Shown: positions 38,017 through 58,915, counted from the stretch's first letter. The stretch is 64,000 nt of DNA from an uncultured Clostridia bacterium (GCA_948471525.1 CAOKSY010000006.1:11646-75645), one strand, 5' to 3'. Translations and numbers: made by a program. Notes: generated from the letters alone by a model not told the origin.

Positions 38017-41000
38017 TTACGCCGATTGCTTTCCGCCTTTCTTTTTCTTGACTACGATCACTGCAACGACCGCAGCTGCCGCAAGGATAACGACCGGTAT
38101 GATTATTCCGAGTACCAAACCTACGTTGGATCCCGACTTAACTTCTACCTCGAATACCTTGCTGATACCGTCGTAGTTCTGGTTGCCGTCTACGGTCACC
38201 ACCACGTAATACTTGCCCTTGGGCGCGTCGGCGAGGTTTTCGGTATATTCCTGCGTGAGCGCCGCGTCGGTGTAATACTTGACGGTAGCGTTGCCGTACT
38301 TGGACGATACGGAAGCAAAGTCAGCCAATGCAGGCAAACCTCCGTCCAAATCGGGCAATACTATTTCGCCGATAAAGCTGTTGGCAGCCTTTGTGATATT
38401 GAACGAAACGGAAGTATTGGACGCCGTCGGACTGAGCGTATAGTTGGGGTTCTTGACCGTAAACGCTCTTGCGGTATAGCTTCCGACGTTGATAGCAACG
38501 CCCTCGTCTATTATTACATCAAATTCTACTACGTCTCCGTTGATTGCGCCTACGCCGCTTGCTATAGGAGCCTGCGACTGCGGCGTATTGTTGAGTTCTT
38601 TATACTCAAGCGTCGTGTTGGACCATACGATAGCTGTGATCACCTTGGGACTGATCGCAAATTCGCAAGTTGCGCCTTCCTCGGGAAGTCTGTAATTCTT
38701 GTTGAGTAATTCTACTACCGTAGCGATATGCGTACCTGCATTTGCATTTGCTCCGCCTACTACTACTTCGCATACGTCGGAACCGAAGAGCGATGCCTGA
38801 TCGACGTGAGCCGTCGGGCACTGCGGATTGCCGTTATAGGCAAACGACGCTACATCCCATACGATATTGACTTCCGCAGGAAGAATAGTGAATTCCTGAG
38901 TGGAGACAGCCTTATAGTTGCTGTTGGTAAGCGAAGTGATGCTTGCAGTATGCGTGCCCGCGCTGAACTGCGGAGCGCTTACGGTAACGTCGCACTCGTC
39001 GCCGAAGAGCAATCCGCCTACCGTCGCTGTAAGTCCGTGCGCCTCGCCGTCGTATACGAACGTCGTCTGCGAAGACCAAGTGATCTCTACTTCTCTGGGA
39101 AGAATCTCGTAGGTTACCGTTCTGCTCTCTTCGGATACTTTATAGTTGGGGTTGTTGGAAAGCACTACTATAGTTACTTCGTACTTACCCACGTCCTTCT
39201 GCGAATGGTTGATATATGTGGGCGCTTCGATCCTGTCGTTGCCTACCAAGCCTTCGAATCCCGCTACTTTAAGCAACTGATAGTCGCCGTTGTAGACTAC
39301 GCTTGCCGTACCCCAATCCGCTGTTATCGTCTTGGGTACTATATGGTACGGAGTAGGATCCTGAGCGGAAGAATCGTCGAGCGCAATTTCGATATAGGAG
39401 TTTTCGTATTCCAATACGAGAGCGTATCTGCCTGCGTCTACGGCGTTTTCTCTTATCGAGAATTTGACGATATCCTTTAGGTCTACCGCGAGAGTTCCGC
39501 TCTTGACGGAAATATTCATTCTTTCATAGATCTCATCGGACGTGAGCGCTGTCTGTCCGTATTCTACTTCGACGGGATCCGCGCTGTAGACTACTCTGGC
39601 CTTGTTGACTACAAGCGTAAATCTGCCGTATTTGGTATTGTGGTTGGCGATAGTTATCTCATAATATATGATTGCTCCTTCCGCGCCGGTAACGCCTTCT
39701 ATACCGGGAAGAGTATCGGTGTATTCGCCGTCTGCTCTATCGGAGTATTTGACTGTAGCCGTATTCCACTTGGATCCCATATCTCCGGCGAGAGTTATTC
39801 TCTCTTCTACGTTTTCCGCAATGTAAGACTTGAGATCGACCGTCTGAACGGATCCGTCGTAAGTAACGGTATTGCGCTGTACGTTGACGGTGATGTCTGC
39901 CGGTACAACGTGGAGATATGCCTCGCTGAACTCGATGTCGTAGTCCAAATTGGTCCACTCAGCCGCAATCCTGTAATCTTTTACCGGAACGTATCCGGAA
40001 GTCGGCAAGCCCTGCAGAGAAAGCGTTATGCCGGGATTGGAAAGGTCTACGCCTTCCGCTTGCCAAGCCGCGTTGGACTTATCCCATACTGGCTCACCTA
40101 CAAATCCGTACGTCACCTGCTGAGTATTGAAGATAGTCACGTTTACCTTGAGCGGAACGATCTTATAGTCGATACTGATATTGGATTCAAGCTGATAGTT
40201 CGCCGTAGTTTCGCCGCTCTGCAATACTGCCTCCGCGGTATATTTTTCTATGCCTGCGCTGAGATTAGTGTGCACGTGTTCGATACCCAATGCGCCGAGT
40301 TTTATCCAATCCTCTACCTGTTGCGAACCGTCCCATTTCGTGCCCTGTATGTAAGCGTTGATCGTAAGCGGTCTTCCGGTATAGGTAAATTCGTATCCGT
40401 CGCCGATTGCCTGACCGGTGATATGATCTCCGTCAAACCACTGAACGCTGATCTTCTGCGGAGTGATGACAAACGCGCTTGCGTTACATCTTGCTCCGTC
40501 TACGACCGCATACTCTACTATGTAGTTGCGACGTTCGTCCTCTTCGTTGCCGTCGAGTTTTGCAAACTTGTGATATACGCGGTAATTGCCTACGCTGTTG
40601 GCAAAGTTATTTGCCTCTGTGGGATCGCCGCCGTCGGCGCCCTGCTCTCCGCCTGCTACTACGTAGAAGATGAAAGAGTCTCCGATATTGGCTATGGTCA
40701 CGGGCTTGCCGCCTGCGGTGACCGTATACGTCACGCCCGTGCCGCGTTTGATATGATCGGATATATCTTTCTCGGTCCTGTCGCCGATAGGTCTGCCGTA
40801 TTCCTTGGTCGCCTTGCCCGGCATATTTATTGTTACGTTTACGGCTCTAATCTCAAACGTGAGGTTTGTTCTGATCCTTGCCTTGTGGTTGGGAGCATTT
40901 ACTCTTACCGCAAACTCGTACAAGCCTGCGTTTCTAAACTTAAAGTCTGCTCCGCTCACCCATCCGGTTTCGTCTTCGATATCGGAACTTACGTTGATGA

Positions 41001-44000
41001 GTTTGTACTCTACCGTTCTGTTATCGAAAGCATACTTTTGCTCCGCTTCGCCGCCTCTGAACTGATAAACGAGCGCCGATCCGTCCGCCAAAGGCGAATG
41101 TTGATTTCCGTCGAAGTATACGGACGGGAAAGTTATAGACGAGATCGTAAACTCTGCGGGAGTTACTGTCAGCGTTCCTTCTTCCGCGTTGCCGCTCTCG
41201 TTGACGAAAGTCACGTTGTAGTTTGAATTCAATACCGTGCCTACGATAGCGTAAGTGTCGGCTTCGATATAGTTGAAACCGCTCTGCGGAAGTCCTTCCG
41301 CGCTGAGACTAAACACCTTGGACGCGCTGTCGGCTCTGTAAAGTCCGTCGCCGCCGATAGTATATGACGCCGTCGAATTGAGGTAGGAGACTATATTGTT
41401 TGCTCCCGTGCCGGTAACCGCCTGTCTTCTTGCGTCTGCAGAACCGTACTCAAGCGTTCTGTCCTTGATAGTTACGGTAATCTGTCTCTGAGATATAACG
41501 AAATCGCATTGCAGATCGCTCTCCTGAACGGTGTACGGATCTCCTCCGTCTATGCTGTATATTACGTCTCCGACGTTGGCTACTCTATAGTTTTGATGCG
41601 TTACTCCTGTGAGTACTGCTCTGTATTTGCCCACGTCGTGTATGTGATTACCCAACTTGCCGCCGTTCTCGAGAATATCGTATCTTATAGTTGCTCTAAT
41701 GTCGTCGTCGCCTATGATATTGCTTACAGTATAGTTTGTATGGCTCTCGCTTTGATCGCCGTGATTGCCGTAAACTTCGTCAAGACCGTGCCATTGTATC
41801 CATACGGGTCTCGAAATTACTTCGTAAACGTCGATATTGGACGTTTTGCCCGAACCTATAACGTCGCCGACAAAACGGAAGTGGAGATCGTCGTTGCCGC
41901 TAGGCACGCCTGCCTTGAGTTGCATAAATACCGAATAGAAAGCTACTCTTTCGTTGGTATCGAGCGCGCCGGTTGTGCTGCCGTCTCCTACGAACAGCGT
42001 TATATAGTCTTTCTGAAGTTTTTCCCAAGCAGCCTGATCGTCAAGTTCGTCATTGCCGGTATCGTTCATCATTCCGTTTACGGAAACAAGGTTTTCGCCG
42101 AGTTTTTCAAACAGTTCGTCGGAAGTGAGAACTCTGTCGCCGTAATTTACTTGAATAGCGCTGCCGAGTTTTATGTCTACCCAGTTGGTAAGATAATTGA
42201 TATTTACCTTTGTCTCAAAAGGCTCGTAGTTGCTGTTTGCCAAACTTACCCAGACGTACCATCTGCCGGCATTTGGAGCGTGAACTTCCGTCTGCGACAT
42301 ATCCAAGTCCGTCGGTCTGGTATCAGTCTCCTCGTCCTTATTGATGATGACCGACATCTGAACGTTGATGTCATCGGCTTTGGTGCCGCCTACGAATTTG
42401 AGGATACTCTTCAGATCGTTGGCGATATTTATGCCGTCGGGTTCGTTTTTCTCGGGATCGGCGTCAAAGTTGAATTCTCTGCGCGTAAGTCCGAGTTCTG
42501 TAGACTTCTCGATCATAAACGTAGCTACGTTGCCGTGATCGGAAGAAAGTATATACTCGTATTTGCCGCCCCCCAAAGGTTTAGCTCTGTATACCGTGAT
42601 ATCGTAATTGCGGACTATCTCTCCGTCAGCCGATACCCCGTCTTTAAAGCCGAGTACGATAGGATAACCGCCCTCTCTGTAATTCTGATACACACCGTCC
42701 TTGCCGGTCTGCGCTGTGGAAGTGAGCGTCCAGTTCATATAATGGTCGAGGATAAACTTATTGTCGGCGTTGTCGGTATGGTACTTCCAGTTTGCACCCG
42801 CCGCGCCGGCAGCAACAAGCTGTCCCATAGCAACGGTGCTTGCAAGACCATATTCTTTGCTTATATCGAATACGTCTATTATGACCTCTCTCTTCTTGAT
42901 ATGGAATACGTCGGACGCATTGAAGAGTCTGTAATTTTCTACATTGTCGGGATTTATCAACGACGTCTCTGCCGTCGGATAACCGCCCTCTTTATAGACA
43001 TAGCCGCCCATATCCTGCTCTGCAAGCACGATAGTATCGTCGTAAACTACGTTCTCTACCCAATCGTCGCCGACCTTGACGTCGGAAGTATCGACAAACT
43101 GACCGTCGACTATCTTGACGTATTTTCTTACGTGAGGATAGATCTTGGGAAGCGTGCCGTCATAGAGCCACGTCTTTCCGTCTTCAAGCCATCCGTCGCT
43201 TGTCTGCTGTCTCCAATCTACGTACACCGTCTTGGGAGATACGCTATAAGCTTCGACGTTGGAATCATTTGTATAATCGATATTATAGTTGTAGAGATAT
43301 TCTCCGCTCATCGCTTTGTGATTGAGAGAATATGCGCCTACTCCAAGTTGATTTGCGTCGGTAACTTCGTTGCCGGAATGAGAAAGGAAAAATGCGATAC
43401 GTCCGTCGATAGAGAACTTGTATCCGTCCTTGTCTATACTCGTGCTGTACGTGATACCGAACTTTTCTTCCATCTCGCCCGCCGTCGGAAGTTTGTCTCC
43501 GTAGGTTGCGCCGTACTTATTTACGTTGATAGTAACGTCTAGTTTGTTGATGATAGCCTGGAAGTTGCCTGCTTTCTCTACGTGGTTGGGAGCGGAAATT
43601 TTATAGTAGACCGTTCTGTTTTCGTTGGCGTTATTATAATCGCGCCAGGTTCTTAGAACCTCGGTATAATTTCCGTTGAGAGTAGACGAGTACGTGATAG
43701 TGATGTCGTCTCTGTTTTTAGCCTCGTAGCCGCGCATTTCTATGACGCCCTGCACGTTGGGAAGCGCAAATCCCTGCTCTTCGCCGTTAAACGTAAGCTG
43801 CACGTCTTCTCTAGTCGAACGGATAGTAGCGGGATTTACCGTAAACGTTCCGTCGGTAGCGGTAATGCTATAGCTGTTGACCACGTAATCCAATACTCTT
43901 GAACTGTCAACCTTTGCCGGCTTCACTTTCAGCGCGCCGGTATAGGTGCCGACTACGTAGTAATGATCGTCGGGATCTGCGGACGCTCCGCCCGTTGTGG

Positions 44001-46749
44001 GCACTCCTACTATGTCGAGCATAAATACCTGATCGGGAGCGTCGCCGCCGGCAAGAGTACCGGAGGTTATCTCATACACCTTATCCGCTTCTTCCGCCTT
44101 ATCGTTGCCGTTGAAAAGCGTATGCTGATATTCGTACAAGAACTGCGAGGAGTTCATAGACTGCGCATAAGTCCTTGTCTTGTCTTTTGCCGTAATAGCC
44201 AAGTCGCGCGGAATTATATCAAACGATACCGTTTCGTCGCCCTTACGTACCGTATAATTATTGCTATGATAGTCGGCCTTGAGCCAATATTTGCCCGCCC
44301 ATACGGCGTTGCCTCCGTCACTGAGAGGCACAAAATGATTTTCGCCGTCGATATTACGCACGCCGGCAAAACCGTCGGGGATCGCCACGGTATTGCCGTT
44401 GGCAGCCGTAGCGTCTTGACCCGTAAGGATAACTCTCGACGCATTTATATCGAGCGTGTCTCCTCCGCTGACGAGTCCGTTTACGGTCGCAGACGGCCTG
44501 TGTCCGCTCTGTCCGTTGTAGTATTTATCCGCATTTTCAGTCCAAGTAAGAGTGACTTCTTTCTTGCCTATAACGTAAGCGTTGTCGGGATTGGAGAACG
44601 AAAGAATCATTCTATCGCCCCAGTTGTTGATAGTCTTACCGTCGAGAACGGTAGATTTATCGACCGCTTTATACTGATTGCGTGCAATCGAATATGATCC
44701 TGCCGGAACAAGATTGCCGGAAAGGAATTCACCGTTGGAGTATACGCCTGCCGTTATCATTGAGGAAATATTAGACTTCGTTACAAATCCCGCATCGTTG
44801 CTGCCGTTTATTGTGATACCCGATACTCCCAGAGACAGTATATCTTCGGAAGAGAGCAACGGATCGCCGTAAGTCAGCGTTTTTCCGCTGCCGTTGGCGA
44901 TTATGCGGTCGAGCGTAACCGAAACGTTGGCTTTGCTTATTTCTACCTGATAATTGACAAGCTGAGGATTGTGATTTTTTACTTCTACTCTTCCGTAAAC
45001 AGTATGCGTTCCTACTTCGGTAAACGATACGGTATCGCCTTTGCTGTTCCAATCGTTGTTATTAAGCGCAAGCGAAGCGGATGAAAGTTTTATTACCAAT
45101 TTACTGGAAGGATCGGTAGCTTGCATACCGTCTTTAAGCTCAACGGTAGCGTTTGTGACAAGCATAGAATAAGCTTGCGGGGAAGCCGTATACGGTCTCG
45201 CCGCCTCTACCGCAGGCGAAAGTATCATCTGCGCCCTCGCTATAGACAAGGTCATCTTTGACGTCGCATTATCCTTATCCGCGGACCAAATGACTTTATG
45301 ATATATTCCGTTATTGAGGTCTACCGCTTTGGGCGTGAACGTGATCTCGTAATTTCCCGCGTCGCGGACTACGGCGTCCGAATAAGAATTGACGGGGGTG
45401 TTGACGACCTCTTTTTCGTTTTCGTTGAGAGGATTGACTACCGTATTATTTATGGTTACGTCGAAATATTTGGAACTAACTTTGTTATATGTATTCCAGA
45501 GAACGTTCAAAGACGTCGCGCCTTTATGATCGTCGGCGCCGTACTGCCAGCCTGTAGCCGTGGTATTGGGTCTTGTGATCTTAAACTCAAACTCATTGAT
45601 CAATTTTGTCAAAGCCTTTATTGCTTCGTCATTCGTCTCTCTTGTTCTTAGTATCGACTTTGCAGAAGCGATAAGATCCTCTGCTCCGTACTCGACGACT
45701 TGACCGTCGTTGCCGACCACGTTCTTTTTATTGAGCGTAAAATCTTTGAGATCGTTGTACGAACTTTCGAGTCTGGTCAGCGCCTCCAAAAGCGGAGTCT
45801 TGTCATAGATATGGATCTTTATCTCCATATCCGGAGTAGTCTTTGTCGTATCGGAATTTTCCGCAGGCAATTTCTTGGGGATTTCTACAGAAGAATTGTC
45901 CCCCAATCTTACGTAATTACCCTCTTCGTTCAAATAATATGTCCAGCATTTATTTATAGTGCTTGTAGAAGCAACGGTAAAGTCGGAAGCAAGACCTCTT
46001 TTTCTATTGAAAGACAACGATCCCACTTTATACCATATTTCGTAAAGTGCAACTTTAGAATTGGACAAGTCGCTCTGCGGATGCGTCGCTGTCTTATAGT
46101 TATACTCGCCTACGCTATTGGGAGTACCGTTGAGAAAGACAGTAAATTCAGGATTTTCGTTCTTGCTTGCAACTCCCAAAAATACGTTGTTGTACATATC
46201 GGAATTTCCGCCGCCGGGAGTTGCGCTATCATTTCCGTTAAAAGACTTAAACGAACCGCTAGCAGCCATAGCGTTTAAACCGTAACCGGAAAAGTTATCT
46301 TCAAACGCCTTGGCATCCGCCCCGACGTTATTTCTCATACTCTCGGAGTGTTTTCCCAAAGCGTTGTGGAAAAACAGCTGCTGAGCATTGTCGTTTGTCT
46401 TTGCTTTAACCTGGAAATAGAAGTAATAACCGGCAGACTGAAGCGTCTCGGTAGTGTCGAGATAGATATCGGTAGGATACCATATGTCTGCGCCTCGGCT
46501 GTTATCTTCTTGATCGGCAATGCGGATAACTTTGGAATTTTGGGCATTGTACAAACCTACCCTGCCGACTTTATAGTCGCCTCCGTAAGCATCGTATGCC
46601 GTATTTGCAATATTAAGTTCTCCGTTTTCTTTGAATTTATTCAGATCGGGAGCGCACAATATGCCCGTCGCAACCACCGCGACTATAAGCATAAGCGACA
46701 CCGCAACAGCAGTAATCTTGCGCTTTGTCATAGATTTCATAAAAAACAT
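38017..46749 (-). CDS. Giant surface protein (2910 aa): signal peptide, unknown ~350-aa N-domain, alternating MBG-like (xYGx) and YDG-like repeats, C-terminal TM anchor
   Basis: At least 10 'K.YG(D/x)..L' units and at least 9 '(F/V)(Y/F)(D/N)G..(H/Q)' units. It ends in VGLVLGIIIPVVILAAAAVVAVIVVKKKKGGKQSA. I saw no LPXTG. An alternative start is at 46740 (MKS). Confidence 0.9.
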   Translation of the reverse strand: MFFMKSMTKRKITAVAVSLMLIVAVVATGILCAPDLNKFKENGELNIANTAYDAYGGDYKVGRVGLYNAQNSKVIRIADQEDNSRGADIWYPTDIYLDTTETLQSAGYYFYFQVKAKTNDNAQQLFFHNALGKHSESMRNNVGADAKAFEDNFSGYGLNAMAASGSFKSFNGNDSATPGGGNSDMYNNVFLGVASKNENPEFTVFLNGTPNSVGEYNYKTATHPQSDLSNSKVALYEIWYKVGSLSFNRKRGLASDFTVASTSTINKCWTYYLNEEGNYVRLGDNSSVEIPKKLPAENSDTTKTTPDMEIKIHIYDKTPLLEALTRLESSYNDLKDFTLNKKNVVGNDGQVVEYGAEDLIASAKSILRTRETNDEAIKALTKLINEFEFKITRPNTTATGWQYGADDHKGATSLNVLWNTYNKVSSKYFDVTINNTVVNPLNENEKEVVNTPVNSYSDAVVRDAGNYEITFTPKAVDLNNGIYHKVIWSADKDNATSKMTLSIARAQMILSPAVEAARPYTASPQAYSMLVTNATVELKDGMQATDPSSKLVIKLSSASLALNNNDWNSKGDTVSFTEVGTHTVYGRVEVKNHNPQLVNYQVEISKANVSVTLDRIIANGSGKTLTYGDPLLSSEDILSLGVSGITINGSNDAGFVTKSNISSMITAGVYSNGEFLSGNLVPAGSYSIARNQYKAVDKSTVLDGKTINNWGDRMILSFSNPDNAYVIGKKEVTLTWTENADKYYNGQSGHRPSATVNGLVSGGDTLDINASRVILTGQDATAANGNTVAIPDGFAGVRNIDGENHFVPLSDGGNAVWAGKYWLKADYHSNNYTVRKGDETVSFDIIPRDLAITAKDKTRTYAQSMNSSQFLYEYQHTLFNGNDKAEEADKVYEITSGTLAGGDAPDQVFMLDIVGVPTTGGASADPDDHYYVVGTYTGALKVKPAKVDSSRVLDYVVNSYSITATDGTFTVNPATIRSTREDVQLTFNGEEQGFALPNVQGVIEMRGYEAKNRDDITITYSSTLNGNYTEVLRTWRDYNNANENRTVYYKISAPNHVEKAGNFQAIINKLDVTINVNKYGATYGDKLPTAGEMEEKFGITYSTSIDKDGYKFSIDGRIAFFLSHSGNEVTDANQLGVGAYSLNHKAMSGEYLYNYNIDYTNDSNVEAYSVSPKTVYVDWRQQTSDGWLEDGKTWLYDGTLPKIYPHVRKYVKIVDGQFVDTSDVKVGDDWVENVVYDDTIVLAEQDMGGYVYKEGGYPTAETSLINPDNVENYRLFNASDVFHIKKREVIIDVFDISKEYGLASTVAMGQLVAAGAAGANWKYHTDNADNKFILDHYMNWTLTSTAQTGKDGVYQNYREGGYPIVLGFKDGVSADGEIVRNYDITVYRAKPLGGGKYEYILSSDHGNVATFMIEKSTELGLTRREFNFDADPEKNEPDGINIANDLKSILKFVGGTKADDINVQMSVIINKDEETDTRPTDLDMSQTEVHAPNAGRWYVWVSLANSNYEPFETKVNINYLTNWVDIKLGSAIQVNYGDRVLTSDELFEKLGENLVSVNGMMNDTGNDELDDQAAWEKLQKDYITLFVGDGSTTGALDTNERVAFYSVFMQLKAGVPSGNDDLHFRFVGDVIGSGKTSNIDVYEVISRPVWIQWHGLDEVYGNHGDQSESHTNYTVSNIIGDDDIRATIRYDILENGGKLGNHIHDVGKYRAVLTGVTHQNYRVANVGDVIYSIDGGDPYTVQESDLQCDFVISQRQITVTIKDRTLEYGSADARRQAVTGTGANNIVSYLNSTASYTIGGDGLYRADSASKVFSLSAEGLPQSGFNYIEADTYAIVGTVLNSNYNVTFVNESGNAEEGTLTVTPAEFTISSITFPSVYFDGNQHSPLADGSALVYQFRGGEAEQKYAFDNRTVEYKLINVSSDIEDETGWVSGADFKFRNAGLYEFAVRVNAPNHKARIRTNLTFEIRAVNVTINMPGKATKEYGRPIGDRTEKDISDHIKRGTGVTYTVTAGGKPVTIANIGDSFIFYVVAGGEQGADGGDPTEANNFANSVGNYRVYHKFAKLDGNEEDERRNYIVEYAVVDGARCNASAFVITPQKISVQWFDGDHITGQAIGDGYEFTYTGRPLTINAYIQGTKWDGSQQVEDWIKLGALGIEHVHTNLSAGIEKYTAEAVLQSGETTANYQLESNISIDYKIVPLKVNVTIFNTQQVTYGFVGEPVWDKSNAAWQAEGVDLSNPGITLSLQGLPTSGYVPVKDYRIAAEWTNLDYDIEFSEAYLHVVPADITVNVQRNTVTYDGSVQTVDLKSYIAENVEERITLAGDMGSKWNTATVKYSDRADGEYTDTLPGIEGVTGAEGAIIYYEITIANHNTKYGRFTLVVNKARVVYSADPVEVEYGQTALTSDEIYERMNISVKSGTLAVDLKDIVKFSIRENAVDAGRYALVLEYENSYIEIALDDSSAQDPTPYHIVPKTITADWGTASVVYNGDYQLLKVAGFEGLVGNDRIEAPTYINHSQKDVGKYEVTIVVLSNNPNYKVSEESRTVTYEILPREVEITWSSQTTFVYDGEAHGLTATVGGLLFGDECDVTVSAPQFSAGTHTASITSLTNSNYKAVSTQEFTILPAEVNIVWDVASFAYNGNPQCPTAHVDQASLFGSDVCEVVVGGANANAGTHIATVVELLNKNYRLPEEGATCEFAISPKVITAIVWSNTTLEYKELNNTPQSQAPIASGVGAINGDVVEFDVIIDEGVAINVGSYTARAFTVKNPNYTLSPTASNTSVSFNITKAANSFIGEIVLPDLDGGLPALADFASVSSKYGNATVKYYTDAALTQEYTENLADAPKGKYYVVVTVDGNQNYDGISKVFEVEVKSGSNVGLVLGIIIPVVILAAAAVVAVIVVKKKKGGKQSA

Positions 46750-46780
46750 TCCCCCACTTTAATTAAAATTTAACAATTAT

Positions 46781-46809
46781 ATTGTACACCCTACATATAG
46801 CGGTGTCAA
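46781..46809 (-). promoter_or_regulatory. Near-consensus sigma-A promoter of the 2910-aa gene
   Basis: On the minus strand, TTGACA (46809-46804), a 17-nt spacer and TACAAT (46786-46781), about 35 nt upstream of the start codon. Confidence 0.6.
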
Positions 46810-46965
46810 GATTAATTTTTTATTTTTTTGTTACCCAACAAGACTATAACTGTCACAATTTGACTGCCAAGACCGGTAAATAAGCCGTCCGGAGCACAAG
46901 CGCAGGTAAAATACCATACGTCTATTTGTTATCTAAACAGTGTGGAGAGATATTCGATAAAAAAG

Positions 46966-47250
46966 ATATAGATTTCTCGACTACGCTCGAAATGACAATG
47001 GTATTATCGTCATATTGAACGAAACGCAGTGAAGTCGAAATATCTAAGTCAATTAATAATCGAGTTCTCTCCACGTTGATCGAGATGACGATAAAAGTGC
47101 AATTCAAGTCTAAGTCGTCATTGACGCTCGCACGAGACGCATATGCTTGCTCGCTACACCAATGCTTCGCTCCTTACGACTGTAATGGAAATTTCTAAAT
47201 TCGGTCATTTCGACTGAAGCGCAGCGTAATGGAGAAATCTCATCCGATAA
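46966..47250. repeat. Intergenic modular repeat cluster R5, between the two giant genes
   Basis: Hairpin modules include agatttctcgactacgctcgaaatgaca, cgtcatattgaacgaaacgcagtgaagtcgaaatatct and gagttctctccacgttgatcgagatgac. The 63-nt module at 47116-47178 is inverted relative to R4. Confidence 0.85.
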
Positions 47251-47278
47251 AAAAACTTTGCGCGTCGATCGACGCGCA
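47247..47278 (-). terminator. Intrinsic terminator built on a 20-nt perfect palindrome
   Basis: TGCGCGTCGATCGACGCGCA (47259-47278), followed on the minus strand by aaagttttttt. Confidence 0.6.
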
Positions 47279-47443
47279 GTGTCATATTGATAAATTTTTA
47301 AAATTTAGAATTACTCGCTGTAGGCGGGAAGATCAAGTTTCGGTCCCGCATAATTGAGATAATATGCAAAATCCTTCCCGTCGCGGTTGGAGATCTTGGT
47401 TATTCTGCCCTTAGTGATCTGCACGATAAGATAATCGGTGTTT

Positions 47444-47478
47444 ACAAAAAATTTACGGCGGATCTTTCGACCCGCCGC
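47444..47478 (-). terminator. Intrinsic terminator of the ~2700-aa gene
   Basis: The minus strand reads CGGCGG-gtcgaaagat-CCGCCG, followed by taaatttttt, 22 nt after the stop at 47500. Confidence 0.7.
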
Positions 47479-47499
47479 ATTCAACGCCGTTGAGTATTA

Positions 47500-50400
47500 T
47501 TACGCTTTAGCGCCTTTCTTTTTCTTGACAAGAACGATCGCTACGACCGCGCCCGCCGCTATGAGAATTACCGGAATGAGTATTCCGAGGATCAGTCCTA
47601 CGTTGGCTCCGCCCTTGACTTCTACGGTAAATACCTGATTGAGACCGTCGTAGTTGTCGTTGCCTTCTACGGATACGACTACGTAGTACATACCTGCAGG
47701 AGCTTTGGACGTATCGCCGGTGTATTCGTCGGTGAGAGCTTCGTCGCGATAATACTTGACCGTTACTTCGCCGAACTTAGCCGATATCGCGTTGTTGCCC
47801 GAGAAATCGGGAAGTCCGCTGCCCTTTTCTACCGTTGTGGGAACGCTGACCGTGCCGTTGAAATCATTTGCGGCTTTTGCGATAGTCATCGTCTTGCCTG
47901 CGCCGTCTGCCACTGTATAGTTATCGTTGGAGAGCGAAGCTACGGTGACAAAGTGCTCGCCCGCGTCGGTGAACGACGTCGTCGTAACGGTGCAGGTATC
48001 GCTTCCTACGAGGCTATCCGCCTTGACGCTCGCGCTGAGCGTATGAGCGTTACCGTCATAGGTAAACGTCTCGCTGCCCCATTCGATCTCCACTGTCTTC
48101 TTGCCTATAGCAAACGTCTTGCTTGCCAATTCGTCAGCGATCTTATAGTTGGAGTTGCCTTCTACTTTTGCCGTAGCGGTATGCGTGCCTGCATTGACCT
48201 GCGCGCCGCCTACTGCTATAGATATCGACTGAGCGTCTTGTTCCGTTATTGCGCCGGATACGTATTCGGCGGAGATAACGTGTTCGCTTCCGTCGTAAGT
48301 AAACGTCGCGTCGTTCCACTTGATCGTCACGTCCTTGGGAAGTATTGCAAACGTATATTCCGCTCTGTCGTTTTCGAGCGCATAGTTCTTCGACGCCTCT
48401 TCGCTCAATCCCACGATCACAGCCTTGTAATCGTCTGCCGCGTTGACGCCGGTGTTGCTGTTGACATCAAATACGAAGATGTTTTCAGCCAAAGCTTCGT
48501 CGCCCTCAATAAGATTTGTCGCCGTAGCGGTCTGAGTCTTGACAGTGCCGTCGTAGATCAGCACATCCTTATTCCATTCTACCGCGATAGTCCTCTTGGT
48601 GATCTCGTATGCTCCGTGCTGAGGATCGACATCTCCGTCTGCGTTGACGAATTTGACGTCGTAATTAGCGCTTTCGCTCTCGTTCTTCCATCTGTAATTA
48701 ATGTTGTGGAAACCTGCGTTTTTAGCTTCGCCGTCAACATAGAATTCAAACAGATCTTTGATATTCACGTCTACAGTCGTTCCGTCGCCGAGTGAAATAT
48801 ATCCGCCGTCGATCATTTCGTCGGACGTCAGCAACTTGTTGCCGTATACGCTCGACATAGCTTTTACGTCTAGCTCTATCTTCGCAACTGTGACGTTTAC
48901 GGTCATAGTGTACTCTTTATCTTCATTATGGTTGGCAAGTATGACTCTATAAGTGATCACAGTGCTGTCGCCTACGTCTTTCACGGAAGGCAATTCGCTA
49001 GAATACGTTCCGTCAGCCTGTTTGTATTCTACCGTCGCGTCCGCCCAGTTCATTGCTCCGGCAACGGTGACCGAGCCGCTTTCGCCTGCAAGGATATCCT
49101 TGACGTTGACGCTCTGCACGCTGCCGTTGTAGTTGAGCTTAAGCGTAGACTTCTTTATACTGACTTCTGCTTTTTCGACGTTGTACTTAGCGTAGTCCTT
49201 ATCGCTGTTTTCGCCTTTGAATATAAAGTTATAGTTGCTGTCGGTGCCACTGCCCACGATGCGGTAATTTCCGCCCGCCGCAAGATATCCGTCGGTCAGT
49301 TCCGCCTCGAGACTGAGCACTACTTTATCCCCTCCCGTAGTCGGGAACTCGAAATTCTCGTCCTCGAACTTCCAGTCGTCGCCGCGATACGAAGTGATCT
49401 CGGGCATTCCCGCAACTATTCCGTATACCGCAGATTTGTCGAATATTACGACCGTCACGTCTCTCTGTACGATACTGTACTCGTAAGTATCGTTGTCGGT
49501 GAGAAGATTGTAGTTCTTCGCAAACGTATCCGCGTCGAGATCGTCAAACTGCGCTACAGCCTGATAATCGCCTACCGCGTAACCGTTTGCAGTCGCGCTG
49601 TTTGTGAACGTAATCGCTTGGAGTTTCGTCGAGCCGTCCGCTTTGTCCGTATCGACTACTGTCACATATGCTTTGAGCGCCGGCGCTTTACCTGTGTATA
49701 CCCAGTTGTGCGCGTCTTTCCAATCTGCGGTCTCGTCGATCTGCCATATTACCGAAGTGTCTCTCTTGGTGATCTCGTACGCTTTAGCGTTGACCGTATC
49801 GCCGTCGGAAGACTTCGCGTAGCTTACCGAATAGTTGTTCATAGCCGCAAGATCGGTCTTGTGGTAAACGCGATAGAAACCTACCGGATTAGCCCAGCCG
49901 CTCAGCTGATCGCCGCCCTCGGCTATATTGACTACGTAGAACTCGAAGTCGGCTGCTATTCCCTCGATATCGGCAACTTCACCGTTTTTATCGAGATATA
50001 CTATATTACACTTATCTTTGAGCCAATCGGAGAGACTTCCGCTTATCGCGTCGCCGTACGTCTTGCTTGTAGCAGTCATATCGATGACGATCTCCGCCTT
50101 GTTGACTTTTACTTCTCTGTCGGTGACGGTCTTCACTTCGTGATTATCCGCGGTGATTCTTACCGAGAACTTATGCGTACCGTAATCTTTAAAAGAAATG
50201 CCGTCGCTCCAGTTGGTTCCGTCCTTGCTGTATTCAACTTTCGCACTGCTCATAGCCATATCGCCGCGAAGAGTGAATATCATCTCCGACGGATGAATTG
50301 TCTGCTCTCTTCCGTTGAACGTCAACGGGTTCATCGTCACGCGGTCAAAAGTGATCTCCGCTTTATTTACGGTGAGTTCCGCAACGTTGCCGCTGCCGTC

Positions 50401-53400
50401 CGCTATATTCTGTCCGCTCTCGTTGACAAAAGTCAGACTGTAGTTGGCGTTGAGCGCCGTAGCGGATATCGAATAGGAGTCTGCGGATATATAACCGTTC
50501 TGACCGTTCATATCGACTGCCAAATTGAATACTTCGGAAGCGACGTCGCCCGCCGCCAATGTCTTGCTGAGCGAATAAGCCGCGTCGTTCGTATTGGTAT
50601 TGAGGTATGCCGCAACGGTATCCGTCTGCGCGTCGTAATCGCCGTAAGTGAGTTGATTGCGGTTCTTTACGGTAACGGTGATCTCTCTTTGAGCGATAGC
50701 GAACGTCTTGGACAGAGCGTCTGCGCCTGCTATCGTATAACGGTCGCTGGAAACGCCCTCAACAGTTGCGATATATGTGCCTACGTCGTGCACGTGACCG
50801 TCTTTAAAGCCTTGCTTGCCGCCGTCTGCATCGGTGTAACCTATTATAAGTTTTACATTGTCTTGAGCCGAAGTATCGGGATCGGTAACTACGTTGCCTA
50901 TCGTGATATTGGTATGACTCTTGCTGTTTTCGCCATGCTCGCCGTACTCTTCGTCGATATCGCCCCATACTATCTCTACTTTTCTGGGTACTACCGTGTA
51001 TACGTCTATATTGGACGCCGCCGAAGAACCTGCCTTGGGCATAAAGCGAATATTGTAATCAAGACCTTCGTTAAGTCTGTAGTATACTGAATAAGATCCG
51101 ATATTCTTGTTCCAACCAAGCGGAGAGATGTCGCCGCTTGCGCCCGATCCTACAAACAACGTGCCGTTGTTCTTGAGCCAAGCCAAAGCAGTCGCGAAAT
51201 CGCTTGCATCGGGAGCGCCTGCGATATCCGAACCGTCCGCAAACAATGCGTCAAACAATGCGCCTGAATCGAGCACGCTTTCGCCGTATTCTACGCTGAT
51301 ATTGCCGCCGACCGTGATGCTGATATAATTGGACAAAGCGTTGATATAGATGATCGCTTCGAGCGTACCGTGGTTGGCTGCGCTAGCCTGTATCCATACA
51401 AAGTATTTGCCCTCTGCGGAGATAGCAACGTCGCTCTCCGACCAAGTCTCGCCGTCCGCGCCCGCGCTTTCGCCTTCGTTATGCAAAGCGCCGACCTTCA
51501 CGGTGACTGCGGCGGACTGATCGCCTTTGAGCGTAATTCTCTTTGCGATATCCGAAAGGAGTACCGTCAAGCCGCCTTCCTGCCATTCGAGGTCGAAATA
51601 TCTGCCCGATACCGAAAGAGCAGCCTCGGTGATCTCAAAGTTACCGTAACCGGTGTTGTTTGCACCTGCGGGAACGCCGCTCGTATCCGAGCCTTCAGCC
51701 AAAGTATTGACTACGGTCACGTTGTAATTGGATACTACGCTTTCGCTGCCCGCTACAGGCTGCAGATATATCGGATAATTTCCCACGTTGCGGAAACCTT
51801 CCGACGCATGCGCCGTGGTCTCCAAAGTATAGTTGGCAAAATGATCGCCTATAAAGTTTTTGCTGCCTTCCGCATACTTCCAGTTTGCGGCGGGAGAGCC
51901 CTGAGATACGAGCAATCCGAGGGCAACGTCCTTAGCGCTGCCGTAAGTCGCAGTCTTGGGAAGTATCTCTATCGTAACGTTGCGCGCAACGATATGATAG
52001 GTATGCGAAAGATCCGATTCTACAATATAGTAGTTGCGTTGATTTTTGGGATTCGTAAGCCCGCTTGTCGCAACCTGATAATCTCCGACGTTGGAACCGC
52101 TCAAAGTGATCGGCGCGAGAACTATGGTGTCGCCCGCAACTACGTCTTCCGCATTTGCTTTAGGCTGAACGGTGGGATTTGCGGCATTATAGGTAAAGTT
52201 GTCTCCGTCCCAACCATCTGCACTCTGCGTCCAATCTACTCTCAACGCCTTGGGAGCTATTCCGTAAGCGTTGACGTTGCACGATTCGTTGTAGTTAATA
52301 TTGTAATTTTCAATAGAGTCGTCTACTCCGTCTTTGATCCTTGCGCGCACCGTATAGTCGCCGGCATCGGCGTTGCCCGCCGTCAAAGACAGTCCCTCAT
52401 CGTCTATAAGATAGAATTCTATATAATTCAACACTTCGAATCTATCCTCTTCCTTATCGAATACGGTCTGAACGGAAAGTCTGTCGACGATTTCTGCGGA
52501 AGACGGAACGCCGTCGCCGTAAGTCGAAGCCGACTTGTTTGCCGTCAAATCGAAATGCACGTGAGCGATATCGATCATTACGCTTAGCGTCTTGGATTGA
52601 ACGTTAACGTGGTTGGCAGCGGTAACTCTGACGTACAGAGTGTGCGTACCTACGTCTTTAAAACCGACGGGATCAACGCCCCAAGCAATACCGTCTTTGC
52701 TGTATTCTACCTTAACTTCGGTATCTCTGTGTTCCGCCTCATAGCCGGAAATTCCGGTGATATTGCTGTCGCTGAGAGCAAAAGTCTGCTCTGCTCCCTT
52801 ATATCTTGCGTTAAACTGTTGCAAAGTGATATCTATCGGCGCGGCATTTACCGTAAACTTACCGTTCTGATGTTTTACTATATCATAGTTGGTATTGAGC
52901 GCGTCGGGCACGGTCATAGAAAGAGTATGCTCTCCCGCCGTAAAGAAGTCGTCCGAAGCGCCGTTGGTCGAAGTTGTCGTACCGATTATCTCCACTCCGA
53001 AAACGCTCGCCACGCTATCCCCTGCAACGATCGCTCCGTAACCGTCCGTTACATTTGTAATTACCGAATAGACGCTGGCAGGCTGTGTCTCAAACAACTG
53101 CTGATAGTATCTTCTTATTGCCGCAGCGCCCTTGGAATTGTCGCTGTATACTGCTCCGTAAGTTCTCGTTCTGTCGAGTATAGTGACCTCGATGGGACGG
53201 GCGGAGATCGTAAATTCCTCGCTGTCGTTGGAAATTACGTAGTTTGCGCTGGAAAGCGTAGCTTTGGCGGTATACGTAGCCGCGTTTACCGCGTTGCCGG
53301 ACGCGTCGAGTTCTATCTCCTGTCCGTTCAGAATACCTTTTCCTTCTATACCCACCGTTACGTTTATATCGGCGGCGTCGCCCGTTACGAGTTGAGCCGT

Positions 53401-55602
53401 ATCGAAAGTAACTTTGGGTCTGTGTCCGACATGACCGTCGTAGTAGATCTTGCCGCTGTCGGAAGGATCGTCCCAATCTACCGTTATCGCTTTCGGAGCG
53501 ATAACGTATGCGCCCTCGTTGCTCGCGATGTCGCCGTTATTAGCGACGGCAAGATTTATTCTATCCGACCATGGACGCTCGCTCTCGCCGTCGTTGAAAG
53601 TCTTTGCGCTTATATTCACGGTATAATTTCCTACGGACGTAAGAATACCGATCAGTACTTCGTTGGTGCTGTTGACGGGCGCAAACGTAAAGTATTTTGC
53701 TACTTCAGCGCGCGCGGCGTCCAAAGACATTCCGTCAAACAATCCGTTGCCGTTGATCTCTTTCAACGTAGCCGCTATTGCGTCCGAAGAAAGCACGCTG
53801 TCGCCGAAGCGTCTCTGTATCGCGTCGAAAGTCACCGTAACGTCCGCCTTGCTCACTTCGACCTCAAACGAACCCGTTGCGTCGTTGTGATTTGCGGCGC
53901 TTACTTTATAATATACGGTATATTTGCCTACTTCTTCAAAACTTACCGCGCTCGGAGATGAGGGGAATACCCCTTCCTGAGCACTCATATATACCTGCGC
54001 GGCAGTCGCCTGTGTGCCCGCCATTCGACCTTTAAGGGTTACGTAGGCCCCCGGGTCGAGAGCAAAATCCTGAATTGCGCCCGTATACGGCTTGGTCACA
54101 GCCGACAACTGAGGCGTATTTACTATCATATCCGCAGGAGTTATCTGCAATCTTACGTTCTTCGGAGTTGCGTCTTCCCACTCGATCACAGAAGATTTCT
54201 CGTCTTTTATAGTAAACTGTATTATATATCTGTTGCTTACGTCGTAGATATCGTTCCACGAATTAAGCGCGGTATTGCCCGATTTGGGAGTTGCGTCAAA
54301 ATAAGACTCGTGATATCCGCTCCAAAAATCAGCCGGTCCGTAAGATTCTTTTTCCCCATAGACTCTGTTGGGTATACTCGGATTGGGACTTCCGATCTTG
54401 AGTTTGAAATTCTTTATCTCCTGCTCGCAAGCGTCTATATTGGTTTGATTGACTGCCGTGCCGTCGGAAGTTTTCTCTCTGCTTGAAAGCATATCGTTTA
54501 CTTTTGCCATAAGAGCGTTGTATTCGTCGATATTCGTAAAAGTAACTCTGTCTTTCAGATCGTTATATACTTTTAGAAGATCTTCTTTTGCGGAATACAG
54601 ATTGCTTTTATCATAGATCATTATATTGATCGTCATACCTGCGGAAGAATTGATGACAAATGTGCCGCTGTAATTATCGTCTGTCGCGTCCGTAGTGGCA
54701 TTGCCGACTCGATCACCGTTAATCGAAACAGTCTCGGGGAGATTTTCCGTCTTAAATGAAGCCACGACTTCGGCATCCGCATATTCGCTCTTCCAACCTC
54801 CGCCAAAAAAACCTTTATCAACTCTGTTGCCTATTTGCGTAGCAATAAGCGGAGCCTTTGAATCACACATAGGCGAGAATTTTACGTTATCTGCCGTTTT
54901 CGTAGCTTTTCCGCGCATCGGCATCGTAAAGCCGTAATCCCACGCTCTATTGCCGGCGACTACGTTGCCGTTTGTCAAATAACCGCTGGGAGTCCAAGAG
55001 TTAGAGTCGTTCTGTCCCTCTCTGCCAATACCTCTGTCTTCGGAATACAGTCCGTAAGAATTGCCGGAAGCATTAAAGGTGTCAACCATAGCCATAGATC
55101 CGTTGGACTCATAGTTTTTTGCCAATTTGACTAAATCGTTATCTTCGCCGTAAGCGCTGAATGAAGATTTTGCGGTTGTTCCGTAATATCCCAGCGTGGT
55201 ATTGTACATAATTACCTTACCTATCTCGCCGGCGGATTTGTTTAATTCATTTTCCCTGAACCAACCGGTATAATGGAAATAATAACCGACGTCCTGAAGC
55301 GACTCGGATATATCCAATACTATGCTTGTAGGATACCATATAGCGACATAGTGCGAATCGTCGTTGTCGGGAGTAGCGATAATAGCTACTCTGGAATTGT
55401 CGTTGGTATACGCTCCTATCGCCGACATCCCGTATTTTTTTCCGGTCTCCGAGTTATAATTAAGATTACTCGTCGGAGTATCGGTTTTATCATATTTTTC
55501 GGACAAAGGCGAAACAAACACGCAAGCGGTAATTATAGACGCTATCAGCATCACCGCCACGACAGAAATCGCCGTTATCCTTTTTCTTATAATTGATTTC
55601 AT
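47500..55602 (-). CDS. Giant surface protein (~2700 aa), collinear paralogue of 38017-46749
   Basis: It has the same architecture and the same order of repeat units as its paralogue, for example EEYGEHGENSKSHTN versus EVYGNHGDQSESHTN. The C-terminus is VGLILGILIPVILIAAGAVVAIVLVKKKKGAKA. The start is set at MKSIIRK (RBS gggagg, 7 nt spacing), because the ORF-track start at 55674 lies inside the predicted -35 box. Confidence 0.9.
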   Translation of the reverse strand: MKSIIRKRITAISVVAVMLIASIITACVFVSPLSEKYDKTDTPTSNLNYNSETGKKYGMSAIGAYTNDNSRVAIIATPDNDDSHYVAIWYPTSIVLDISESLQDVGYYFHYTGWFRENELNKSAGEIGKVIMYNTTLGYYGTTAKSSFSAYGEDNDLVKLAKNYESNGSMAMVDTFNASGNSYGLYSEDRGIGREGQNDSNSWTPSGYLTNGNVVAGNRAWDYGFTMPMRGKATKTADNVKFSPMCDSKAPLIATQIGNRVDKGFFGGGWKSEYADAEVVASFKTENLPETVSINGDRVGNATTDATDDNYSGTFVINSSAGMTINIMIYDKSNLYSAKEDLLKVYNDLKDRVTFTNIDEYNALMAKVNDMLSSREKTSDGTAVNQTNIDACEQEIKNFKLKIGSPNPSIPNRVYGEKESYGPADFWSGYHESYFDATPKSGNTALNSWNDIYDVSNRYIIQFTIKDEKSSVIEWEDATPKNVRLQITPADMIVNTPQLSAVTKPYTGAIQDFALDPGAYVTLKGRMAGTQATAAQVYMSAQEGVFPSSPSAVSFEEVGKYTVYYKVSAANHNDATGSFEVEVSKADVTVTFDAIQRRFGDSVLSSDAIAATLKEINGNGLFDGMSLDAARAEVAKYFTFAPVNSTNEVLIGILTSVGNYTVNISAKTFNDGESERPWSDRINLAVANNGDIASNEGAYVIAPKAITVDWDDPSDSGKIYYDGHVGHRPKVTFDTAQLVTGDAADINVTVGIEGKGILNGQEIELDASGNAVNAATYTAKATLSSANYVISNDSEEFTISARPIEVTILDRTRTYGAVYSDNSKGAAAIRRYYQQLFETQPASVYSVITNVTDGYGAIVAGDSVASVFGVEIIGTTTSTNGASDDFFTAGEHTLSMTVPDALNTNYDIVKHQNGKFTVNAAPIDITLQQFNARYKGAEQTFALSDSNITGISGYEAEHRDTEVKVEYSKDGIAWGVDPVGFKDVGTHTLYVRVTAANHVNVQSKTLSVMIDIAHVHFDLTANKSASTYGDGVPSSAEIVDRLSVQTVFDKEEDRFEVLNYIEFYLIDDEGLSLTAGNADAGDYTVRARIKDGVDDSIENYNINYNESCNVNAYGIAPKALRVDWTQSADGWDGDNFTYNAANPTVQPKANAEDVVAGDTIVLAPITLSGSNVGDYQVATSGLTNPKNQRNYYIVESDLSHTYHIVARNVTIEILPKTATYGSAKDVALGLLVSQGSPAANWKYAEGSKNFIGDHFANYTLETTAHASEGFRNVGNYPIYLQPVAGSESVVSNYNVTVVNTLAEGSDTSGVPAGANNTGYGNFEITEAALSVSGRYFDLEWQEGGLTVLLSDIAKRITLKGDQSAAVTVKVGALHNEGESAGADGETWSESDVAISAEGKYFVWIQASAANHGTLEAIIYINALSNYISITVGGNISVEYGESVLDSGALFDALFADGSDIAGAPDASDFATALAWLKNNGTLFVGSGASGDISPLGWNKNIGSYSVYYRLNEGLDYNIRFMPKAGSSAASNIDVYTVVPRKVEIVWGDIDEEYGEHGENSKSHTNITIGNVVTDPDTSAQDNVKLIIGYTDADGGKQGFKDGHVHDVGTYIATVEGVSSDRYTIAGADALSKTFAIAQREITVTVKNRNQLTYGDYDAQTDTVAAYLNTNTNDAAYSLSKTLAAGDVASEVFNLAVDMNGQNGYISADSYSISATALNANYSLTFVNESGQNIADGSGNVAELTVNKAEITFDRVTMNPLTFNGREQTIHPSEMIFTLRGDMAMSSAKVEYSKDGTNWSDGISFKDYGTHKFSVRITADNHEVKTVTDREVKVNKAEIVIDMTATSKTYGDAISGSLSDWLKDKCNIVYLDKNGEVADIEGIAADFEFYVVNIAEGGDQLSGWANPVGFYRVYHKTDLAAMNNYSVSYAKSSDGDTVNAKAYEITKRDTSVIWQIDETADWKDAHNWVYTGKAPALKAYVTVVDTDKADGSTKLQAITFTNSATANGYAVGDYQAVAQFDDLDADTFAKNYNLLTDNDTYEYSIVQRDVTVVIFDKSAVYGIVAGMPEITSYRGDDWKFEDENFEFPTTGGDKVVLSLEAELTDGYLAAGGNYRIVGSGTDSNYNFIFKGENSDKDYAKYNVEKAEVSIKKSTLKLNYNGSVQSVNVKDILAGESGSVTVAGAMNWADATVEYKQADGTYSSELPSVKDVGDSTVITYRVILANHNEDKEYTMTVNVTVAKIELDVKAMSSVYGNKLLTSDEMIDGGYISLGDGTTVDVNIKDLFEFYVDGEAKNAGFHNINYRWKNESESANYDVKFVNADGDVDPQHGAYEITKRTIAVEWNKDVLIYDGTVKTQTATATNLIEGDEALAENIFVFDVNSNTGVNAADDYKAVIVGLSEEASKNYALENDRAEYTFAILPKDVTIKWNDATFTYDGSEHVISAEYVSGAITEQDAQSISIAVGGAQVNAGTHTATAKVEGNSNYKIADELASKTFAIGKKTVEIEWGSETFTYDGNAHTLSASVKADSLVGSDTCTVTTTSFTDAGEHFVTVASLSNDNYTVADGAGKTMTIAKAANDFNGTVSVPTTVEKGSGLPDFSGNNAISAKFGEVTVKYYRDEALTDEYTGDTSKAPAGMYYVVVSVEGNDNYDGLNQVFTVEVKGGANVGLILGILIPVILIAAGAVVAIVLVKKKKGAKA

Positions 55603-55645
55603 AAATTTTCCTCCCAAAAGAAAATATTTATTATAAGTCAATGAT

Positions 55646-55674
55646 ATTTTATCATTAGACAAATTGCATGTCAA
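55646..55674 (-). promoter_or_regulatory. Sigma-A promoter of the ~2700-aa gene
   Basis: On the minus strand, TTGACA (55674-55669), a 17-nt spacer and TAAAAT (55651-55646). Confidence 0.55.
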
Positions 55675-56613: not shown

Positions 56614-56688
56614 TTTTCCCTCAATTTATTAAATATAAAAGCAATCGTTTCGTAATTTTTAAATATTGCTCGATACAAACGTTTATTG

Positions 56689-58280: not shown

Positions 58281-58313
58281 AAAAAAATCTCAACTTTTGT
58301 TGAGATTTTTTTA
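58281..58313. terminator. Bidirectional intrinsic terminator
   Basis: aaaaaaatctcaac-tttt-gttgagattttttt has an A-run and a T-run on either side. It serves the convergent small ORF and the gene at 58311-58697. Confidence 0.75.
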
Positions 58314-58697: not shown

Positions 58698-58915
58698 AAC
58701 CTTTACCTCCGAAATAGAGCGCGATCAAAAGACCGCATTTTCTCCATTATAATAAAAATGTCTCTTTTTGTCAATACTAAAAATTATAATGATTAAAATA
58801 AATTTAAAAAAATTCTTAGCATTAATGCTTTTGACCGCAAAAATACGCCTTTTATAATCAAAATTAGTAAAATGCGGTTTTTACGCACAGTAGAGCCTGT
58901 CCGTCACGGCGATTA

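Follow-up and report, generated by a model that had tools for sequence, protein, structure and literature searches.

Ebh of Staphylococcus aureus and Embp of Staphylococcus epidermidis are giant Gram-positive surface fibres whose C-terminus crosses the membrane and carries a charged tail, so that no sortase is involved. Fibrillar adhesins form a class defined by Monzon, Lafita and Bateman (PMC8286594, PMC9210967); its Firmicutes members with MBG/YDG stalks are single giant chains with an export signal, an N-terminal domain far from the anchor, a beta-sandwich stalk and a C-terminal anchor, and both YDG and MBG are listed as stalk domains of the class (PMC9210967). In Apilactobacillus kunkeei, consecutive genes that occupy an appreciable part of a small genome encode the extracellular proteins Giant1-5, which are 3,000-8,000 aa long (PMC12863079). 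Here we analyse two adjacent giant genes, A and B, in a 64,000-nucleotide window (GCA_948471525.1, CAOKSY010000006.1:11646-75645; all coordinates are counted from its first letter) from an uncultured spore-forming rodent-gut Clostridia bacterium, whose genome comprises 1.72 Mb in 23 contigs and is 96.4% complete. In our judgement A and B are likely to encode paralogous, tail-anchored surface fibres of the fibrillar-adhesin type with divergent tips.

Apart from an export signal that is putative, the pair shares the layout of the MBG/YDG-stalked fibrillar adhesins, and this kind of protein is already known. A and B differ, however, from the listed fibrillar adhesins in being anchored by a transmembrane helix and poly-lysine, not by LPXTG, SLH or another listed anchor; in a head, the N-terminal domain, that falls outside known adhesive families and folds; in stalk modules too diverged for Pfam thresholds; and in a fixed 4 x 4 super-repeat that is conserved across species, where fibrillar adhesins have a variable number of near-identical repeats. 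The stalks of Ebh and Embp are mostly helical FIVAR/GA modules, whereas the modules of A and B are predicted beta-sandwiches; we detected no sequence relationship between these proteins and A or B, whose helical linker is not called FIVAR by Pfam. Giant1-5 resemble A and B in being elongated, in having a special N-terminal domain and in being paralogs with different histories, but the heads of Giant1-4 are beta-solenoids, in contrast to the A head, which is modelled as a beta-sandwich; the Giant proteins also lack the C-terminal transmembrane helix of A and B, having no transmembrane segment and being thought to attach via SH3b-like C-terminal domains (PMC12863079). None of the searches that we ran found homology between Giant1-5 and A or B.

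Both genes are intact on the minus strand, as open reading frames at 38017..46749 (2910 aa) and 47500..55674 (2724 aa from a TTG). A Shine-Dalgarno-like GGGGG sequence lies 1 nt before the first ATG of A (46749) and ~10 nt before the ATG at 46740; because of this spacing, and because homologs start M-N/K-S-x-x-K-R-K, translation probably begins at 46740, giving 2907 aa. In B, the ATG at 55602 lies 8 nt after GGGAGG and gives 2700 aa, the length called in a second assembly. The listed TTG start coincides with the beginning, at 55674, of the -35 hexamer TTGACA in B's own promoter, and is probably spurious. The genes and their putative signals are:

38017..46740, minus strand: gene A, predicted 2907-aa giant surface protein of clade I (see below), based on the open reading frame, ribosome-binding site and start, the copy in the second assembly, and nfeD-floA downstream as in relatives
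46781..46809, minus strand: promoter-like site of A, TTGACA-17-TACAAT, 11/12 matches
47259..47278, minus strand: second intrinsic-terminator-like hairpin between B and A, from the sequence
47454..47479, minus strand: intrinsic-terminator-like hairpin just 3' of B, 11-bp stem and T run
47500..55602, minus strand: gene B, 2700-aa paralog with the module order of A and its own divergent head, based on the open reading frame, collinearity and the copy in the second assembly
55646..55674, minus strand: promoter-like site of B, TTGACA-17-TAAAAT, 11/12 matches, with an upstream TG (extended -10)

We also looked for a terminator-like hairpin 3' of A and found none, so transcription may read through from A into nfeD-floA.

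The second assembly, from another sample, contains the same A-B pair, both genes intact, at 99.0% DNA identity. A is 99% identical to its counterpart there (P0003), with 38 synonymous and 38 nonsynonymous differences, and B differs by 37 synonymous and 47 nonsynonymous changes. These near-equal counts are consistent with relaxed but real constraint on both genes.

A first-pass annotation of this DNA had described the two products as collinear giant proteins, and pairwise alignment bears this out from end to end: BLASTP gives a single collinear high-scoring segment pair (HSP) of 2870 columns at 29% identity, and when aligned globally with MAFFT the proteins are 34.8% identical across 2551 aligned columns. 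The shared N-terminal anchors that it had named, IWYPT, GYYF and YNDLKD, occur in A and B alike. DNA likeness is recognisable just in the last ~280 nt, where a 281-nt HSP has 72.6% identity, close to the roughly 70% given for the 3' ends in that annotation. Its check for gene-conversion tracts was run and showed no sign of them, as no DNA HSP between A and B reaches 90% identity and the highest is 87.5%, 32 nt long. Its picture of an ancient divergence with both copies retained is supported; the near-consensus promoter of each gene and the two intrinsic terminators between them (47479-47454 and 47278-47259), which it had also proposed, are located in the list above.

Each protein is laid out as a putative export signal, a head (residues ~34-315 in A), a helical linker (316-392), one M-H unit, four M-Y-M'-H units, one M module, four Y modules, a conserved C-terminal module, a transmembrane helix and a KKKK tail. 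The features along the chains are, from the C-terminus of A:

38017..38403, minus strand: A membrane-proximal module (residues 2783-2870), predicted transmembrane helix, KKKKGGKQSA tail and stop; the best-conserved folded module
38404..39585, minus strand: A, one M and four canonical YDG-type modules (residues 2389-2782); domain E-values of 3e-15 to 3e-8 for the four Y units
39586..44931, minus strand: A super-repeats SR1-SR4 (residues 607-1068, 1069-1530, 1531-1966 and 1967-2388), from hhalign, a 20-copy alignment and AlphaFold2 (AF2)
44932..45573, minus strand: A first stalk block of about two modules (residues 393-606); matched by hhalign, at 90-98.7% probability, to the final ~115-180 positions of every super-repeat
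45574..45804, minus strand: A helical linker with the IYDK...YNDLKD motif (residues 316-392); helices in the AF2 model
45805..46650, minus strand: A head, predicted orphan beta-sandwich (residues 34-315); AF2 pLDDT (predicted local distance difference test) 70.7, pTM (predicted template-modelling score) 0.76; the most variable part of the family
46651..46740, minus strand: A putative N-terminal export signal, KRK and ~20 hydrophobic residues with a conserved A/I-T-A/G site; from the sequence, kept in 19 homologs
47500..47622, minus strand: B predicted transmembrane helix, KKKKGAKA tail and stop, from the sequence
54373..55512, minus strand: B head and helical linker (approximately residues 31-410), by alignment to A

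The stalk consists of ~24 modules of three kinds, organised as four 4-module super-repeats of ~420-460 aa each with flanks. The family consensus suggested this periodicity, and blocks of alignment columns were then compared profile to profile (hhalign) as a test. In A, four successive blocks match one another from end to end (probability 99.5-99.9%, E 6e-23 to 1e-36), and the ~480 residues after SR4 likewise match super-repeat blocks. Twenty super-repeat copies from five proteins can be aligned, with invariant YG and NY positions, and the super-repeats are mutually just ~20% identical. In the AF2 model of SR1 from A (20-row alignment, pLDDT 75.4) the strands are grouped into four blocks, which we read as four beta-sandwich modules: M, with a YG motif and a long insert; Y, which is YDG-like; M', a second YG/YA module; and H, which carries Y-N/D-G...Q and terminates in NH/NY. 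The first-pass annotation had seen ~20 alternating repeat units in the same order in both proteins; the common order stands, but the units number ~24 and form 4 x 4 super-repeats instead of a plain alternation of two types.

When the SR1 model was compared with known structures by Foldseek, the matches were tandem Ig/cadherin-like rods (GhpA, cadherins, protocadherins and SraP; E 9e-5 to 1e-3) with low TM-scores (template-modelling scores). The best of them, the grappling-hook protein GhpA of Aureispira (PDB 9fly, 9flp) and cadherin ectodomains, reach TM-scores of only 0.14-0.26, which we take as a likeness of module type and arrangement, not of descent or function. The super-repeat profile gave one chance match (E 0.011) against PDB sequences. 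At ~4 nm per module, the rod would be ~100 nm long.

The first-pass annotation had assigned the modules to MBG and YDG, families whose Pfam models give hardly any signal here. Indeed, Pfam and NCBIfam searches of the full proteins give essentially nothing: Pfam has no match for A, reports just MBG_2 for B at 17.3 bits (against a 25-bit cut-off), and never reports YDG. MBG_2 is reached at E<=0.01 in 4 of 17 family members, with a best E of 3e-6. Homology with annotated proteins was examined with custom hidden Markov models (HMMs) built solely from units of nine proteins with precomputed PF18676 annotation, three of which also carry PF18657. These match A with full-sequence E-values of 6.7e-35 and 1.9e-26, and B with 1.1e-17 and 7.7e-32, and their best matches fall on Y modules, namely the four near the C-terminus and the one within every super-repeat. 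The family profile, in turn, retrieves giant proteins with precomputed PF18657/PF18676 annotation, up to E 3e-169. As HMMs from Pfam-annotated proteins match them, the Y modules are diverged members of the MBG/YDG superfamily, so the earlier assignment holds at the level of homology (1e-17 to 1e-35) while failing Pfam's thresholds. We gave up typing modules separately with iterated HMMs seeded with YDG and with MBG_2, because both seeds converged on the same units; the two are thus indistinguishable here and make up one superfamily. Alignments within the family by hhalign, together with weak matches, suggest that the M and H modules are more distant kin.

The family extends over related genomes, which are deposited at NCBI as metagenome-assembled genomes (MAGs) named 'Clostridiales/Clostridia bacterium', the Mgla_MAG bins among them. 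The A head (residues 30-420) finds matches in 19 of 36 genomes of its own taxonomic family and in none of 24 from other families of the order. Within the genus, 16 of 22 genomes have a match; two of the six without one are matched by the B head. Where the contig allows, the A-head match sits in an open frame of 2,750-3,077 aa. Nineteen full-length relatives are collinear with A and B, with invariant columns scattered over the whole length, a family length of 2,700-3,070 aa and a fixed module order. There are one or two paralogs per genome, and two paralogs often occupy different loci. No ortholog of B was found in 60 related genomes: the best matches of its N-terminal domain there share 24-38% identity with it and belong to giant genes that the A head had already detected, A itself being 29% identical. 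A maximum-likelihood tree of 2,456 columns resolves three clades, each with an SH-aLRT (Shimodaira-Hasegawa-like approximate likelihood ratio test) value of 100. Clade I (SH-aLRT 100) unites A with the sole giant gene of each of five other species; B falls outside it, in an unresolved branching with a protein from another genus. The giant genes of clades I and II usually stand directly downstream of an ABC exporter pair (ABC_membrane and ABC_tran).

The two ends of the protein are conserved throughout the family. All members have a KRK n-region and a ~20-residue hydrophobic segment, within which a conserved A/I-T-A/G closes a ~15-residue hydrophobic core and resembles a signal peptidase I site. 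The sequences IITAC in B and VATAC in clade III fit the PROSITE lipobox pattern. We rejected a lipobox as a feature of the family, since the Cys shifts in position between clades or is absent (ILC in clade I, no Cys in clade II). At the other end, a hydrophobic helix followed by a K-rich tail of 5-15 residues is present in 21 of 21 members; it provides a cell-surface anchor of a type that is not among the catalogued anchor domains of fibrillar adhesins. A regular-expression search of the last 120 residues found no sortase motif in A, B or 18 relatives, and a lone LPWTG in one relative lies inside a conserved module and was judged to be chance. Nor did a PF04203 search of the 96.4%-complete genome find a sortase, while control genomes do yield matches. 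A and B have, then, neither of the marks of LPXTG-type (MSCRAMM) proteins, a motif before the C-terminal helix and a sortase in the genome, and the single C-terminal transmembrane helix with a KKKKG tail in place of LPXTG, as first annotated, is found in both.

The same genome encodes a third YDG-repeat surface protein of 1174 aa (contig C1, L004 103-3627, minus strand), with a signal, a GLUG-motif region and about five YDG modules. It continues with a transmembrane helix and RRRRR, then a ~190-residue tail that has a weak match to phage gp30.3 (PF08010) in its final ~75 residues. The solution of a membrane helix plus a basic stretch is therefore used elsewhere in this sortase-less genome.

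In contrast to the ends, the head is the most divergent part. Mean pairwise identity across the family is 26.6% for the head, 33-37% for the super-repeats and 44.7% for the membrane-proximal module; within clade I the values are 28.7%, 40-48% and 60%, respectively. The heads of A and B are 23% identical, and between B and its copy in the second strain 10 of 11 codon differences in residues 1-300 are nonsynonymous. AF2, run on a 14-row alignment, models the head as a ~265-residue beta-sandwich followed by helices at model residues 285-353; the linker has Y312, K314, L317 and R367 invariant across the family. Its resemblance to FIVAR, judged by eye, was dropped, as Pfam was unsupportive in all 14 members. 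In agreement with the first-pass annotation, which could not assign the N-terminal domain, we found no relative of the modelled head outside the family. Sequence profiles had no match in PDB or Pfam, and Foldseek searches of PDB and BFVD returned no match at E<=1e-3, the TM-scores being <=0.21. The weak PDB list from Foldseek is rich in adhesin beta-sandwiches (PrgB, Als3, AgI/II, ClfB and MyfA), and was not counted as evidence. Thus, where a fibrillar adhesin has a recognised adhesive domain distal to its anchor, A and B have a distinct N-terminal domain that matches nothing in Pfam, PDB or BFVD; what they do share with the class is a stalk of tandem repeated beta-sandwich domains, as seen by hhalign, AF2/Foldseek and YDG/MBG_2 homology. 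An exhaustive HMMER search of the head against 1.84 billion cluster representatives returned 15 matches. Seven are N-terminal in proteins of 1,448-3,085 aa, and eight are in proteins of 218-774 aa that are probably pieces cut at contig ends.

These observations suggest how the two proteins may work. Each would be transcribed from its own strong predicted promoter and exported by the Sec pathway via its N-terminal signal. The single C-terminal helix would hold the protein in the cytoplasmic membrane, leaving the short poly-lysine tail in the cytoplasm; as the genome has no sortase, such membrane anchoring could substitute for LPXTG wall anchoring. The ~24 beta-sandwich modules of the MBG/YDG superfamily would form a rod of roughly 100 nm, enough to cross the wall, and its far end would display the lineage-specific ~280-aa beta-sandwich head on the helical linker. 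Since variability peaks in the head, where A and B are strongly different, the cell would most likely gain from the pair two specificities of binding, directed at host mucus or glycans, at food particles or at other cells. A binding role for the head is argued from its position and variability. The reading as adhesin-like fibres is based on the stalk and the signals of topology, on conservation that declines from membrane to tip, on the absence of sortase, on the third YDG protein and on the layout established for fibrillar adhesins of Gram-positive bacteria (PMC8286594, PMC9210967).

Several observations weigh against it. No adhesive domain or fold that is known matches the head, whose model is only moderately confident; the M modules reach canonical MBG models only weakly; the lipobox-like ITAC/ATAC of B and clade III raises the prospect of a membrane-retained N-terminus, which would make the head non-distal; and length and module order are fixed, unlike in classic adhesins of variable repeat number. 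The last point could mean that the proteins are structural fibrils or spacers of the envelope, as a protective coat or a wall ruler, with the head serving lateral or self contacts instead of an external ligand. Length (2700-3070 aa) and order are kept in all three clades as well as in two unplaced lineages, and invariant columns occur throughout; super-repeats that are ~20% identical cannot easily change in number; clade-I genes have a housekeeping position beside nfeD-floA; and homophilic cadherins are among the Foldseek matches. However, the head is the fastest-evolving part and the paralogs have very different heads, which fits changing external ligands better, and the protein may be dispensable in a few genomes, given the six of 22 in the genus that lack an A-head match (two being matched by the B head). 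We regard a purely structural role as unlikely. A somewhat smaller chance goes to a protein tethered at both ends, in which an uncleaved N-terminal signal anchor (in B a lipoprotein anchor) would turn the ~2,650-residue body into a loop or arch without a free tip. The hydrophobic region is indeed long (~20-22 residues) and A has no textbook AXA site, and the lipobox-type sequences IITAC of B and VATAC of clade III would suit a lipid anchor. Yet the Cys keeps no fixed position among the clades, the A/I-T-A/G after the ~15-residue core looks like a signal peptidase I site, and a stiff rod of ~100 nm that is anchored at both ends is difficult to square with the cell wall.

The first-pass annotation had explained the pair by duplication of the whole gene, that is, by a local tandem duplication followed by long divergence in place. 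Adjacency on the same strand, the same module order and DNA identity of only 72.6% in the best-conserved 281 nt speak for such an event. The tree and the synteny, however, argue otherwise. A and B are not each other's closest relatives, as A is nested among the orthologs of five other species and B lies outside, beside the protein of another genus; and no B-type gene was found next to the A-type genes of five related species. By position, the ortholog is A: the giant genes of clade I are flanked downstream by nfeD-floA and upstream by an ABC pair or by ABC-MFS-254-aa genes. In one relative, the 254-aa gene (L044 4428-5192) adjoins the clade-I giant gene upstream. Its remains can be seen in our window:

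47314..47442, minus strand: relic of the 3' end of the 254-aa gene; collinear by tblastx with L044 5067-5992, and by BLASTP 61% identical to residues 218-252 of 254 (E 4e-13)

This relic comprises the last ~40 codons of the 254-aa gene, as an open frame between the two terminators, and 3' of it follows a collinear spacer that resembles the sequence upstream of the relative's giant gene. The spacer thus keeps a trace of A's ancestral upstream neighbour. The left flank (1277-aa gene, pfkB and TRAM methyltransferase), in turn, has other downstream neighbours in relatives. From the tree, the synteny and the relic we conclude that B and its terminator were joined to the truncated neighbour of A by rearrangement, in a secondary juxtaposition of old paralogs: A is the ancestral resident of the locus, and B an old divergent paralog placed upstream of it. 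Duplication in place is very improbable, and the evolutionary account changes to one of old paralog lineages, differential loss and later juxtaposition. The spacer between A and B (46750-47260) also carries hairpin and palindromic repeat modules. These could have mediated the rearrangement that brought in B.

The genes around the locus include spoIIR, ypeB, a sleB-like gene, citrate synthase and nfeD-floA. Upstream of B, a DUF2461 gene (55930-56625, minus strand) is broken, with ATT for ATG and TGA for a conserved TGG Trp codon; it is intact (231 aa) in the 99%-identical second assembly (L048 116-811), and the damage reflects either strain-specific decay or assembly errors. The remnant at 58305-58775 (minus strand), which is interrupted by in-frame stops, belongs to a protein family that lacks a Pfam match and has dispersed paralogs on contigs C5 and C9. 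In relatives, intact kin of 625-742 aa sit directly 3' of the giant genes of clades II and III, in frames that overlap or abut the end of the giant gene. We considered this 625-742-aa frame as a member of the A/B locus and rejected it, since here there are just the dispersed paralogs and the broken remnant, and no Pfam family. The 1277-aa protein encoded at 60150-63983 (minus strand) also has no Pfam match; in three related species it is kept at 52-57% identity, and its gene, pfkB and the TRAM methyltransferase gene follow one another in the order seen here.

The A/B pair does not reveal a new biological principle, being of a familiar adhesin-like type. What is unusual about its family is the combination of an orphan head, a fixed 4 x 4 super-repeat and a transmembrane tail anchor in a sortase-less spore-former. 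The analysis supplies a domain map and an orphan head in two divergent versions, offers an example of membrane tail-anchoring in place of sortase anchoring, and indicates that Pfam's MBG/YDG models overlook a whole branch of that superfamily. A bolder idea, which we hold only tentatively and think rather unlikely, is that fixed-length, tail-anchored rods of 4 x 4 modules with an orphan, fast-evolving head are the main attachment organelle of these sortase-less Clostridia, and that the niche is tuned by swapping or adding head paralogs. If so, A and B would be an example with two specificities, the head would be a new ligand-binding fold, and rod length would be set by the thickness of the envelope. 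In any case the two genes take up ~1% of a ~1.7-Mb genome, and the fibres are therefore probably important for the hold of these cells in the gut.

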